Shown one piece after another: positions 31,301 through 45,814 of a stretch of DNA of 64,000 bases; positions within the stretch are counted from its first letter, which is position 1; every line of letters begins with the position of its first letter. Location of the stretch: contig JAPDJH010000001.1 of NCBI GenBank assembly GCA_029259175.1, positions 1-64,000 on the forward strand, written 5' to 3'. Below the pieces are notes generated by a model. The model was not told the origin of the DNA and searched no databases. It was given only the letters and a program-made list of their open reading frames with translations. This stretch comes from Hadesarchaea archaeon. GTDB taxonomy: Archaea > Hadarchaeota > Hadarchaeia > Hadarchaeales > Hadarchaeaceae. The position numbers and the translations under genes are program-made.

Positions 31301-31436
31301 GCGGACTACGAACCTTCGGAGTACAAACTGACTGAAGAGAGCAACACAAACTGCTCGCGGGCACTAGCACCCGTCTGTTCAGTTTTCAGAAAACAAGTTG
31401 GAAAAAGTATAAATAAAAATTCTTACAAAGTAAGAA

Positions 31437-40483: not shown

Positions 40484-41293
40484 TCACCCTTCGAGTTCCT
40501 TCATTGCCTCATCGACAGAAAAACCCTCGTGGACGATTTTGGCTAGAGCCCGCGTCATGCGCATTGGGTCGCGATGCTGGAAAATATTGCGGCCTATGGA
40601 GATCCCAATAGCCCCGGCTTCGATCGCGTCGGCCGCCATTTGCAACACGTCTCGCTCGGTGGCCGCCTTGGGCCCGCCGGCTATCACGACTGGAACGGGA
40701 CAACCGCGAACCACCTTGCGGAAGGAATCCACATCGCCAGTGTAGACAGTCTTCACGATGTCGGCCCCGAGTTCGGCACCCACACGTGCCGCATGGGCGA
40801 CCAAGTCCGGATCGTGCTGATTCTTGACTTTCGGGCCACGCGGATACATCATGGCAAACAGAGGTATCCCCCATCGATCACACGCTTCGGCAACCTCCCC
40901 CAGAGTTCTAAGCTGCTCCGGCTCGTTCGTCGCCCCCACGTTGATGTGAACCGACACTCCATCGGCGCCCAATGCGAGCGCCTCCTCAACCGAGGCCACT
41001 TGGACCTTAGAGTTCGGGTCCGGACCCAAGGACGTGCTTCCCGAGAGGTGAATTATCAGACCGATATCGCGGCCGTATCCGCGGTGCCCTGCTCGAACGA
41101 TCCCCTTGTGGAGCACCACCGCGTTGGCGCCCCCTTCAGCAACACTGTTGATGGTGGCCGCCATGTCCTCCAAGCCCTGAATCGGACCCATGGAAAGGCC
41201 GTGGTCCATGGGGACGATCACGGTGCGTCTTGTCTTCCTGTCGATGATGCGCTCAAGCCTTATTCGCTTGCCCACCTCGGACAGCCAAATCAC
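40484..41293 (-). CDS. aroA': 2-amino-3,7-dideoxy-D-threo-hept-6-ulosonate synthase
   Basis: [33 protein letters not shown]; upstream of aroB'. Confidence 0.92.
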
Positions 41294-41362
41294 CCTCTCA
41301 TACTAACTCCAACCCAATTAAAAGGTGTGTGGTCAGTCATGCGCGACGCAACTGGAAGAGGA

Positions 41363-41569
41363 CTACGATAAATCGTGGAGTTCCAAGATCGGGTTTCGAG
41401 ACTACGATAAATCGTAGTTGGTGCTGATTCTGCATGTTCTCCCCTTGCGCTCGTGGTGATGAGCTCTACGATAAATCGTAGAGTTCCCCAACTCAAATCG
41501 CGAGGTCTACGATAAATCGTAGACTTTCCATTCCGAACCGGGGCGCGAGAGGACTACGATAAATCGTAG
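41363..41569. repeat. Five copies of 16-bp palindrome CTACGATAAATCGTAG
   Basis: Starts at 41363 (1 mismatch), 41402, 41466, 41507, 41554, between divergent aroA' and aroA. Confidence 0.95.
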
Positions 41570-41619
41570 ACCTTCTTCTCAATTCAGTCATCATTATAGG
41601 CTCACAACACAAAACCAAC

Positions 41620-42915
41620 TTGATGAAACTGCTCGTGCGTCCCTCGCGGCTCTCGGGAAAAGTAAGAGCGCCCCCATCGAAATCCTACACCCACCGGGCC
41701 TTCATCATTGCCGCCCTAGCCGAGGGTGAAAGCCGGATTCATCACCCCCTCCTCAGCCTCGATACGCAAGCGACCATTGAGGGAATAAAAGCACTCGGTG
41801 CCCGCGTTGAGCGAAAGGGCGAAGCGTGGATCGTGAGGGGAACTGGAGGACAGGTCCGAGCGAAGCAAAGAGAGATCGATGCCCTGAACTCGGGAACAAC
41901 CCTCAGGATTCTTGCCGCAGTCGGTGCACTCTCCCCAGCCCCTATCCGCCTCACGGGAGATCGCTCGTTGCTCAGACGGCCCATGGGGCCGCTAATCGAT
42001 GCGCTCAAACAGCTCGGAGCCGAGGCGAAATGCCAAGGGGCCAACGGACGACCGCCAGTGGTCGTCGGCGGAGGACTCGAAGGTGGAGAAACCGAAATCA
42101 CCGGCACTGTTAGCTCACAATTCATATCCGCCTTGCTCATCGCTGGCACCCAGGCACGGGAGGATGTGGAGATAACCATAACCGATGAGCTTCGATCCAA
42201 GCCCTACGTCGAAATCACCTTGGATCTGTTGCGAAAGGCCGGGGCGCGCATCAAGCACGACAAATCGCTCATGTGGTTCAAAGTCGAGGGGCGCCAAAGA
42301 CTGAAACCGCTCGACATCGAGATACCAGGTGACTTTTCCTCCGCCAGCTTCGTGCTCGGGGGGGCGGCCCTCACCGGCTCCTGCGTGGAAGTCGACAATC
42401 TGAACTACCGGGGTGTCCAAGGGGATCGGCGCATAGTGGACTATCTTCGCGAATTCGGCGCAGAGGTGGAGGTAAAAACCGGCGCGATCTCGGTTCGTGG
42501 AAGCGAGCTTTCGGGCAGCGAGTTCGACTGTGCCGACACGCCCGATCTCGTTCCAGTGCTAGCTGTGCTCGGCAGTATCGCAGACGGAACCACCGAAATC
42601 CGAAACGTCCCGCATCTCCGGATCAAGGAAAGCGATCGCATCAGAACGCTGACCATTGGGCTCGAGCGCTTGGGAGCACGGGTAAAGGAGCTGGAAGACG
42701 GTTTGAAACTCTTTGGGCGTAAGGGGCTGACGGGGAACACGGTGGACTCCTATGGAGACCACCGGATAGCCATGGCGCTGACGATTGCTGGGCTCGTAGC
42801 CACCGGGCAAACTCTCGTAAGCGGTGCTGAAAGCATTCCCGTATCGTATCCGGGTTTTGTCGACGATTTGAAAAAGCTCGGGGCTCGAATAGAAATTATC
42901 ACTTCTAAACCCTAA
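41620..42915 (+). CDS. aroA: EPSP synthase
   Basis: PPSKSYTHR, NSGTT, RPM, SSQF, PGDFSSA, KESDR, DHR. Confidence 0.95.
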   Translation: MMKLLVRPSRLSGKVRAPPSKSYTHRAFIIAALAEGESRIHHPLLSLDTQATIEGIKALGARVERKGEAWIVRGTGGQVRAKQREIDALNSGTTLRILAAVGALSPAPIRLTGDRSLLRRPMGPLIDALKQLGAEAKCQGANGRPPVVVGGGLEGGETEITGTVSSQFISALLIAGTQAREDVEITITDELRSKPYVEITLDLLRKAGARIKHDKSLMWFKVEGRQRLKPLDIEIPGDFSSASFVLGGAALTGSCVEVDNLNYRGVQGDRRIVDYLREFGAEVEVKTGAISVRGSELSGSEFDCADTPDLVPVLAVLGSIADGTTEIRNVPHLRIKESDRIRTLTIGLERLGARVKELEDGLKLFGRKGLTGNTVDSYGDHRIAMALTIAGLVATGQTLVSGAESIPVSYPGFVDDLKKLGARIEIITSKP

Positions 42916-44148: not shown

Positions 44149-45026
44149 TGAGGCGAGCAGGATTGTACAGTGTTGGAATCGCGTCGGCTTGCGCCTCAGC
44201 TACGATTGTGAATGCTTTGGCGACTGGAAAGGGCGCTGCCTTTGGGATAGAGCTGCGTGTGTACGCTCGGGTCGAAATCGGAGACAAATTGCGTGGAGTA
44301 AAGGGGCGCGTGGAAGGGAAAACGTGTGATCCGCGGCTTGTCGAACTTTGCGTCGAAAAAGTGCTCAAACGCGTTGGCATCTCAGCGGGGGCGAGAGTCC
44401 ACACGACTTCAGATATTCCGATCGCCGTTGGGTTGTCCAGCAGCAGCGCCGCCGCGAACGCTGCAACGCTCGCTACCTATGCGGCTCTCGGAGAAAAACC
44501 GAGCGAAAAAGAAATACTAAACATCGGGATCGAAGCCGCCTTTGACGCTGGCGTAACGCTGACGGGTGCGCTTGACGATGCCGCGGCTTCTCTTTTGGGA
44601 TGCGGGGTGGTGACCCACAATCTGAAACGCAAGATTCTGAAAAGAGTGCGCATACCGAAAAAGTACAAGGTCGCCGTTTTAGTACCCAAGCGCCGCATAT
44701 ATACCGCTGCTCTCGCCCGGAAGGACTTCTCCCGAATAGCATCCGGAGTAGACGAGGCTCATCGACTTGCACTTTCTGGAGAAATATGGCCGGCAATGAT
44801 TCTCAACGGACTGCTGTATTCATACTCGCTTGACATTGACCCCTCGCCAGCTCTCGAAGCTCTGCGCTCCGGCGCGGTGGGCGCCGGACTGACAGGCACG
44901 GGGCCGGCAGTCGTTGCAGTAGGCGAACTCGACGCCATCTTGGAAACCGTGCGCCTCTGGAGGAAAAGGAAGGAAACCATAATCTTAACAGCACCCGCAC
45001 AGAAAGGAGGGAGGGTGGAAACATAG
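44148..45026 (+). CDS. aroK: Archaeal (GHMP) shikimate kinase
   Basis: TIVNALATGKGAAFGI, GLSSSSAAANA, TGALDD, GLTGTGP. Confidence 0.93.
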   Translation: MRRAGLYSVGIASACASATIVNALATGKGAAFGIELRVYARVEIGDKLRGVKGRVEGKTCDPRLVELCVEKVLKRVGISAGARVHTTSDIPIAVGLSSSSAAANAATLATYAALGEKPSEKEILNIGIEAAFDAGVTLTGALDDAAASLLGCGVVTHNLKRKILKRVRIPKKYKVAVLVPKRRIYTAALARKDFSRIASGVDEAHRLALSGEIWPAMILNGLLYSYSLDIDPSPALEALRSGAVGAGLTGTGPAVVAVGELDAILETVRLWRKRKETIILTAPAQKGGRVET

Positions 45027-45814
45027 CAGTAAGCAAGGAACTCAAAGCCCTGCGCCAGCAAATTGACAGGATCGACCAGAGCATCCTCGAATTGGTTGCA
45101 CAGCGCCTGAAGCTGGCCAATCAGATAGCCCAACTCAAAAGCAGGCTGAAACTGCCGGTAACGGATGAAGTACGGGAACAAAAGGTGCTCTCACGGATTC
45201 GAAAAAAAGCAGCGGAACTCCGGATCGACCGCGACATGGCGGAATCGCTCATCCGTTATCTGATGGCGTGGTCGGTGGGAAAACAGCGGGAGCGAATAGA
45301 AAGCCCATCCGTGTGGTCTCGAATCAATCAGGTATTCGAAAACTATCCTGCCCAGCTGGAGGTGGTGAAGTTCTTGCTAAAACACGGGCTTCACGTCGGA
45401 GACGATGAAAACATATACTGTGAGGAAATCAAGATTCCCTTTACACAGATAGCCCGCCACATCGGTGTTGATCGGCGCACGGTCGAGATGACCGCCAAAA
45501 AGATCTTGGAAGATCCACAGCTGAAAAATATCTTTCAGAACTTGGAATCCACGGCATTTCTCCGCCGAGTCGCTAGAGAGCTGAATCTAGGAGTGATCGA
45601 GATAATCCCCGATGACGCTGCAAAGCCGGGCATAGTCAAGAGCGTAGCCGAAGTGGTGTCCAACGCGGGAATAAGCATCCGGCAGGTAGTCACAGACGAT
45701 CCCCACTTGAGCACCGCGCCCAAGCTGACGGTCATAACTGAGTGCCCAGTGAAGGGCGAGGTCATAGACGCTCTCAAAAAAATCCCCCACATCCGGAGCA
45801 TCATCGTGTATTGA
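45023..45814 (+). CDS. Chorismate mutase (AroQ) fused to HTH-ACT amino-acid regulator (COG2150-like)
   Basis: LRQQIDRIDQSILELVAQR...K...V.D.VRE; then QIARHIGVDRRTV and ACT; CM helix lies upstream of first NTG (45092), ATA at 45023 follows GGAGG. Confidence 0.8.
   Translation: MAVSKELKALRQQIDRIDQSILELVAQRLKLANQIAQLKSRLKLPVTDEVREQKVLSRIRKKAAELRIDRDMAESLIRYLMAWSVGKQRERIESPSVWSRINQVFENYPAQLEVVKFLLKHGLHVGDDENIYCEEIKIPFTQIARHIGVDRRTVEMTAKKILEDPQLKNIFQNLESTAFLRRVARELNLGVIEIIPDDAAKPGIVKSVAEVVSNAGISIRQVVTDDPHLSTAPKLTVITECPVKGEVIDALKKIPHIRSIIVY

Follow-up and report, generated by a model that had tools for sequence, protein, structure and literature searches.

Clustered 16-bp palindromes at an aromatic biosynthesis locus of a Hadesarchaea archaeon and their linkage to a family of small Cas2-like genes

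The stretch of DNA analysed here (64,000 nucleotides, positions 1 to 64,000 of contig JAPDJH010000001.1 of a Hadesarchaea archaeon; hereafter the window) carries five copies of the 16-bp palindrome CTACGATAAATCGTAG in the gap between two divergent operons for aromatic amino acid biosynthesis. The best-supported statement on this array is that a small Cas2-like protein has its cognate sites in the five palindromes, which reached this place as a derivative of that protein's cassette without the gene. The statement is carried by the linkage between gene and motif, the co-variation of motif classes with protein subfamilies, the homology of three arrays within the genome, the fact that cores are far better conserved than spacers, the lack of the motif cluster in relatives, and the transposon-like ends of a cassette in another genome. 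Taken in full, the proposal is that the window array copies, without the gene, the recognition-site array of a small, selfish Cas2-like cassette specific to Hadarchaeota, and we regard it as evenly balanced between true and false. The array is tied in this way to an undescribed, lineage-specific family of small Cas2-fold proteins with 7-2-7 palindromes of their own, which has about seven modules in a 1.3-Mb genome and at least one version that is demonstrably transposon-like in another genome, and the tempting readings of the array as an aromatic operator or a centromere are removed.

Units of the array and their copies in the genome

The window was searched with CTACGATAAATCGTAG on both strands at up to three mismatches, with 100 shuffles as the control, which gave 10 matches (each of the five sites counts once per strand); the shuffles averaged 0.23, and none of them reached 10. 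All five units have the AA centre on the + strand, and they lie at 41363..41378 (unit 1, CTACGATAAATCGTGG, with one mismatch, ending in CGTGG), 41402..41417 (unit 2), 41466..41481 (unit 3), 41507..41522 (unit 4) and 41554..41569 (unit 5), the last four being perfect. With start-to-start distances of 39, 64, 41 and 47 bp, they occupy 41363-41569 of the 326-bp gap that extends from an aldolase gene to an EPSP synthase gene. The motif search confirms the number, perfection, centre and spacing of the palindromes as described in an earlier note made from the sequence alone, as well as its claim that the window holds no other copy, here at up to three mismatches. Symmetry was also said there to extend beyond the 16 bp; the flanks are indeed partly symmetric, but they form a conserved asymmetric pair, GA or GGA on the left and AGTTCC or ACTTCC on the right, and it is this asymmetry that gives the units a common orientation.

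A scan of the whole assembly (1.3 Mb in 23 contigs, 90.9% complete) at up to three mismatches confined the motif to three clusters, namely the window array, six units on contig C14 (C14:4048-4326, start-to-start 71, 38, 67, 40 and 47 bp) and three units in the opposite orientation on contig C7 (C7:6771-6875), the latter accompanied by a truncated one at about 6743. The C14 array fills the gap between the convergent 3′ ends of a molybdopterin dehydrogenase large subunit gene and an aldehyde:ferredoxin oxidoreductase gene, the C7 array precedes a TRM5/TYW2 methyltransferase gene and lies about 390 bp from a carbamoyltransferase gene, and no aromatic amino acid gene is found at either. The spacers, which had been called unique, are so within the window but are homologous to spacers of the C14 and C7 arrays, as the window array runs in register, spacers included, with C14:4119-4326 and partly with C7:6821-6875. 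In the alignment with C14, 78 of 80 positions are identical over the five aligned cores and 88 of 138 columns (64%) over the four aligned spacers. Because the homology is in register and the cores are far better conserved, the block would have been copied whole, after which the 16-mers were held constant and the spacers drifted. By this comparison the 16-mers appear to be, or to have been, under sequence-specific constraint, and their conservation is silent on whether the host or the element gains.

The window array is flanked by two copies of an 8-bp direct repeat, TCAGTCAT, at 41333..41340 and 41584..41591, which constitute a candidate target-site duplication. Together with the homology to C14 and C7, this repeat delimits a candidate inserted block of 243 bp (41341..41583, + strand) that contains the whole array, and without this block the gap would measure about 75 bp and the two TATA-like boxes of the operons would stand side by side.

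No motif cluster was found in any of 40 related genomes, one of which has a single site with one mismatch; in EPSP synthase, genomes of the same genus reach only 60-64% identity, and no closer relative was at hand for comparison. The arrangement of the aldolase and EPSP synthase genes is kept in two of these genomes, G003 and G010, and their gap is without an array. A near-identical strain is represented by metagenome contig L018, whose flank is identical at 2126 of 2163 positions and which has an array at the same place, with the first spacer replaced by one that elsewhere belongs to the C7 array. The L018-type variant also appears in Logan contigs from a different study, which in addition show units 4-5 joined to a different sequence. 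Given this spacer swap and these junctions, the arrays appear to be dynamic, with units lost, swapped or rearranged between strains. A two-unit pattern had no match in genome_contigs and viral_contigs and one in metagenome_contigs (L018), the array was not found in plasmids, and no empty site, that is, no joint skipping the array, was seen in the sequencing runs examined.

The cognate gene and its family

The first unit of the C7 cluster ends a small open reading frame (ORF), in which GAC TAC GAC AAA TCG TAG reads as D Y D K S stop. An intact ortholog of this C7 gene is the metagenome protein P0008 (74 aa), the C-terminal EDYDKS of which is the translated unit and which was not found in phages or viral contigs. 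The C7 gene itself is broken by an in-frame TAG in place of a Trp codon (TGG-to-TAG) and by a frameshift; it aligns to residues 1-41 of P0008 in one frame (88% identity) and to residues 40-74 in another (66%). An intact paralog at C2:15055-15345 (hereafter the C2:15k paralog) is bracketed by six CTACGAAGGTTCGTAG units, which share the outer CTACGA/TCGTAG arms and the 7-2-7 plan with CTACGATAAATCGTAG; a helix-turn-helix in this paralog was not confirmed. Further paralogs were recovered by a profile search of the six-frame ORFs of the genome at C2:26846-27085, with six TGACAAAGGTTTGTCA units, at C16:6432-6755, within a cluster of TGTCCCATATGGGACA units, at C3:60906-61244, bracketed by TGCACACGTGTGCA, at C5:47-415, which carries TCTAGACACGTGTCTAGA, and at C8:40583-40909, where no palindrome was found. 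The small genes on C2, C3, C5, C7 and C16 do not stand beside cas1 or a CRISPR array, and an ordinary cas1-cas2-CRISPR locus lies elsewhere (cas1 at C1:216916-217788, cas2 at C1:219944-220159).

The perfect palindrome TGTCCCATATGGGACA is present in 16 copies (C16:4659-6937, C2:168906-169155, C2:187721-187779 and C9:2489), eight of which surround the Cas2-like paralog on C16, the others lying in gene-less clusters and one of them before a 61-aa helix-turn-helix (HTH) gene. This family behaves like that of CTACGATAAATCGTAG in forming gene-less arrays. At the end of C9 (C9:43100-43489) and the start of C5 (C5:1-420), TCTAGACACGTGTCTAGA units occur in mirror order; the two contigs probably adjoin there, the assembly having seemingly been broken at a palindrome module.

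The family is rare, with ten representatives at E<=0.001 among 1.84 billion proteins, one of which, at 750 aa, is probably spurious. A profile search gave hits in 14 of the 66 Hadarchaeota genomes, the source genome among them (13 of the 65 others); some of these are multi-copy, with some copies containing stop codons. Among 185,579 species genomes, Hadarchaeota records alone yielded its SGWHY subgroup. Repeats were surveyed at 18 loci of other genomes, the loci of the source genome and one duplicate locus being left out. An 11-mer repeated at least three times stands beside the gene at 10 of the 18 loci, a perfect palindrome is present at least twice at 10, and one or the other is found at 15, with L030, L032 and the truncated L041 showing neither. 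Moreover, the motif classes track the protein subfamilies, SGWHY occurring with CTACG...CGTAG, APGRFY with GACGTATATGCGTC and IPRKFY with TTGCGCA..TGCGCAA, and it is chiefly this correspondence that argues for recognition of the repeat by the protein.

At locus L031 and in a cassette of genome G057, a unit follows the TATA-like box and precedes the start codon, the ATG of L031 falling within the unit. Perfect tandem repeats, each holding the family palindrome, stand before the gene at L029:1229-1345 and L039:1262-1350 (three to four repeats of 29 bp) and after it at L025:1752-1845 (three repeats of 31 bp); these tandem repeats resemble a type III antitoxin array. In G057, a block at about 92% identity is common to four or five loci, and the cassette of 479 bp (L046:1419-1897, also L047) consists of a TATA-like box, one unit, a 76-aa Cas2-like gene and three units. 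Both copies with both ends visible have 13-bp inverted ends, matching at 12/13 and 9/13, and are flanked by 8-bp direct duplications, matching at 8/8 and 7/8. With inverted ends and target-site duplication, the G057 cassette bears the signature of a transposon. All palindromes of G057 lie inside cassette copies, and in G028 all sites except one single extra lie around the gene; the end motif of G057 has no counterpart in the source genome (G000).

The structure of P0008 was modelled by AlphaFold2 from a 19-sequence alignment, giving a beta-alpha-beta-beta-alpha-beta (E-H-E-E-H-E) fold at a pLDDT of 87.6. D5, the Asp at which strand 1 ends, corresponds to the YD of SSO8090 in the alignment; this residue and the Q and S of the following strand are the same in all 19 sequences. 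Cas2 and VapD are the only recurring family matches, and all of these are weak. The best Foldseek rows were VapD and Cas2, but at E 0.09-0.4, and an exhaustive VIA-align search placed generic ferredoxin-like folds higher, with Cas2 3exc at Z 5.2 and rank 41. Among the profiles, Pfam CRISPR_Cas2 (PF09827) matched 2 of the 19 members (best E 0.0022) and TIGR01573 matched one (E 0.0081), and the curated cut-off of neither model was reached, the C2:27k paralog scoring 18.6 bits against the CRISPR_Cas2 cut-off of 23.8 in the genome scan. All seven families matched in PADLOC are Cas2 models (best E 0.00033), the two commonest with 3 of 19 members each. A profile search against the PDB returned Cas2 SSO8090 at E 0.0094, below a transgelin-2 row (E 0.00073) that covers helix 2 and strand 4 only and is regarded as spurious. 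A word-based homolog search with the protein gave its own cluster only, Pfam had no match for single small ORFs, phmmer gave chance rows only against the PDB, an Atlas feature search gave unnamed clusters below 0.9, and an Atlas structure search gave VapD, PaaX_M and ChrB_N rows that serve as leads only. By predicted fold and motif, not by curated cut-off, the family is treated here as a putative divergent, Cas1-independent branch of the Cas2/VapD superfamily.

Interpretation of the array and its rivals

In the explanation that we favour, a complete cassette would comprise one gene, encoding a Cas2/VapD-type fold in about 70 aa, and several 16-bp 7-2-7 palindromes specific to each protein version. 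Typically, one of these would lie where transcription or translation begins, another would cover the gene's 3′ end, and others would lie alongside. The cognate gene of CTACGATAAATCGTAG would be that on C7, from where units and spacers could have been copied as a block to C14 and to the aro gap. A dimer of the protein would bind the palindrome as double-stranded DNA, a mode that is favoured because the sites are palindromic, lie at the gene's core promoter or adjacent to it and fall mostly outside the likely transcript. By analogy with other selfish modules, binding in complete cassettes may shut off their own promoter, and gene-less arrays would act as passive extra clusters of binding sites. 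As the cognate gene is broken, the window array is probably a relic, which would be unbound, or is recognised only by the intact C2:15k paralog, with which it shares the outer arms. Any influence on the aro promoters, which is possible, would be incidental.

Several points weigh against this explanation. Binding of the protein to DNA is a step that we infer, the fold is of a nuclease type (Cas2, VapD) and not that of a known sequence-specific DNA binder, the conservation of the strand-1 Asp in 19/19 sequences suggests catalysis rather than mere binding, and P0008 is net acidic by our own count. The single orientation of the units and the 29-31-bp tandem repeats fit a role of the RNA at least as well. 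Gene-less arrays of five to six units were seen in this genome only, with none in G057 or G028, and the gene is broken yet the cores are intact, which requires recent loss or another binder. As to insertion, the TCAGTCAT repeat would arise by chance with an estimated probability of about 0.05, or about 1 in 20, for these two flanks; the window array showed no inverted ends beyond its own palindromes, by which the search for such ends was swamped, and the C14 and C7 arrays have no inverted ends or flanking duplication.

It is possible, though we think it unlikely, that the module works at the RNA level as a type III-like toxin-antitoxin system, in which a ribonuclease toxin of the Cas2/VapD fold is neutralised by transcribed hairpin repeats that it binds or processes, with the gene-less arrays as orphan antitoxins that are still useful, or do no harm, now that the toxin gene is broken. 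The restriction of recurring matches to the Cas2 and VapD nucleases and the invariant strand-1 Asp agree with this possibility, as do the perfect tandem repeats at L029, L039 and L025, the single orientation of all units of each array, and the patchy, multi-copy and pseudogene-rich distribution of the family, which is like that of toxin-antitoxin genes. Known type III toxins, however, have other folds, and in complete modules most units precede the TATA-like box or stand on both sides of it, where many would need promoters of their own. Non-Watson-Crick flank pairs on the AA strand are G:T in 19 cases and A:C in 9, a bias in favour of RNA pairing that comes from related, non-independent copies, whereas the folding energies have no consistent strand preference (−92 vs −88 kcal/mol for C1, −92 vs −110 for C14 and −51 vs −39 for C7). 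Contigs from RNA libraries cover units 3-5 with the 5′ end of the EPSP synthase gene, unit 1 and the C7 array, but they prove neither transcription, strand nor processing, and the parts that they leave uncovered are not evidence. Only four chance-level rows came out of an Rfam scan (41000-42000, E up to 10), and the window array was without a match.

Rather improbable, in our judgement, is a dispersed structural repeat of the repetitive extragenic palindromic (REP), bacterial interspersed mosaic element (BIME) or miniature inverted-repeat transposable element (MITE) type, which would have been spread by a transposase or by recombination, would have no present function and would not need the small protein. 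Such a repeat would be consistent with three copies whose spacers are homologous and whose intergenic surroundings are unrelated, with convergent genes on either side of one copy, with the TCAGTCAT direct repeat flanking the window copy, and with the loss, swapping or rearrangement of units between strains. It is at odds with the difference in identity between cores (78/80) and spacers (64%), and the linkage to the small gene and the gene-specific motifs at 15/18 loci tie the repeat to a protein. No Y1/RAYT transposase was found in the genome (PF01797, no match in the 90.9%-complete assembly), where TnpB-like genes occur on C6 and C3 with none near any array, and the repeat occupies three loci only, while REP elements usually occupy tens to hundreds. 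The earlier note had listed a REP-like or hairpin-RNA array last among three proposals, and this one came nearest, as the array is a dispersed, mosaic palindromic repeat, but no Y1/RAYT partner was found and the array belongs to a protein-coding cassette.

The first of those proposals, in which the host would coordinate its aromatic amino acid genes through the array as an operator, is by now largely refuted and in our view very improbable. It draws on the position of the array between two divergent aro operons. The leftward operon begins with the DeoC/LacD-family aldolase gene (40484..41293, − strand) and also encodes DHQ synthase II, type I DHQase, shikimate dehydrogenase and prephenate dehydrogenase, following the archaeal route to shikimate, and the rightward operon begins with the EPSP synthase gene (41620..42915, + strand), together with chorismate synthase, GHMP kinase and chorismate mutase. 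Putative TATA-like boxes, identified by eye, lie about 27 bp upstream of the aldolase GTG (TTTTAATT, 41316..41324, − strand) and about 27 bp upstream of the EPSP synthase ATG at 41623 (ATTATA, 41593..41598, + strand). Unit 5 ends 24 bp before the latter box, and archaeal activators can act at such a position before a TATA box. Nevertheless, the array sits between the two boxes, outside both, and overlaps neither box nor either start. The genome-wide scan puts the other arrays at genes unrelated to aro, trp or phe, and none of the 40 relatives has a cluster, including G003 and G010 with their array-free gap. The binder that had been proposed, an HTH-ACT/chorismate mutase fusion, turned out to be a protein of 263 aa (45023-45814, + strand) with CM_2 (E 1.4e-20), a weak ACT match (E 0.002) and no HTH family at E up to 0.1 in Pfam. 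Thus the candidate is without a Pfam DNA-binding domain, and it is conserved where the motif was not found, namely in 5/5 relatives tested, four of which (G001, G003, G004 and G010) are among the 40 without the motif.

A centromere-like cluster of parS or SegB sites, also raised before, hardly deserves credence, for although clusters of 16-bp palindromes at few loci resemble parS and one ParB_N-domain ORF is present (C1:153427-153702, in a 284-aa frame, the only one in the genome), this ORF is far from all arrays, no partition gene stands beside any of them, the motif is species-specific as judged from the 40 relatives searched, the shared spacers mark the arrays as copies and not as independent sites, and the linkage points to the Cas2-like gene as a different binder.

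Relation to known systems and further sites

The family resembles Cas2 (SSO8090, 3exc; SSO1404, 2ivy) and the VapD toxins (6zn8, 3ui3) in its length of about 70-90 aa, its fold, and the strand-1 Asp followed by an IQxSV strand, and differs from them in falling below the curated cut-offs, in having no adjoining cas1 or CRISPR, and in that no VapX-like partner gene was seen. To our knowledge, short palindromes of their own are not a known property of Cas2 or VapD. Like CRISPR arrays, the arrays consist of short, partly palindromic repeats in a single direction with non-repetitive spacers and are linked to a Cas2-like gene; unlike them, they have irregular spacing (39-71 bp), spacers common to several arrays, a repeat of 16-26 bp, and no cas1 or leader.

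A further, decidedly speculative proposal is that a Cas1-less branch of the Cas2 superfamily is the sequence-specific partner, either binder or nuclease, of clustered short palindromic repeats with non-repeated spacers, gene and repeats travelling together as a transposon-like cassette of about 0.5 kb. If true, this would be a living module of Cas2 plus repeats outside CRISPR, with a bearing on the origin of the repeat-recognising half of CRISPR adaptation, and a new type of mobile element in archaea, through which promoters are seeded with gene-less palindrome arrays. Should the protein bind or cut its sites, selfish cassettes would be seen to deposit ready-made protein-binding arrays in host promoters, and sequence specificity would, as far as we know, be seen for the first time in the Cas2/VapD fold. 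In full-text literature searches, no paper was listed with a title or abstract describing such a module.

With the C proteins of restriction-modification systems, Aca proteins and type II antitoxins, the family has in common a small gene with palindromic promoter sites, the co-variation of motif and protein, and a patchy, mobile distribution. Those proteins are of the HTH or ribbon-helix-helix type and control a neighbouring cargo gene, whereas the present family has a Cas2-like fold, no cargo gene, sites at the 3′ end and gene-less arrays of five to six sites. REP/BIME elements are alike in that palindromic units and a few conserved linkers form mosaic intergenic clusters in which units are gained, lost or swapped, but in bacteria their units alternate in orientation, and the array described here differs in its one-way units, its three loci, its archaeal host and the lack of a detected RAYT/Y1. 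The type III toxin-antitoxin systems ToxIN, CptIN and TenpIN likewise place a small gene of nuclease fold beside short repeats, and some relatives of the family have 29-31-bp tandem repeats; nevertheless, the protein fold is different, the spacers of the CTACGATAAATCGTAG family are irregular and non-identical, and the array comes after the gene. Finally, MITEs and small transposons with terminal inverted repeats are matched by the ends and duplications of the G057 cassette and by the 8-bp direct repeat of the window array, with the differences that the G057 element carries a gene and that the window array has no separate inverted ends.

Single sites of the sister motif of the C2:15k paralog were also noticed. 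In the window, the site CTCCGAAGGTTCGTAG (31306..31321, − strand, one mismatch) was located by the motif search in a divergent intergenic gap between a 349-aa gene from 31300 (− strand) and an AbrB/SpoVT-like small gene with a PIN-like gene from 31437 (+ strand). Another one-mismatch site, at C1:216516-216531, separates the 3′ end of cas1 from the beginning of a Cas4-like ORF; the CRISPR array (C1:214-215 kb) is about 1.5 kb away, and the site suggests a possible link of the solo Cas2-like protein to the adaptation operon.

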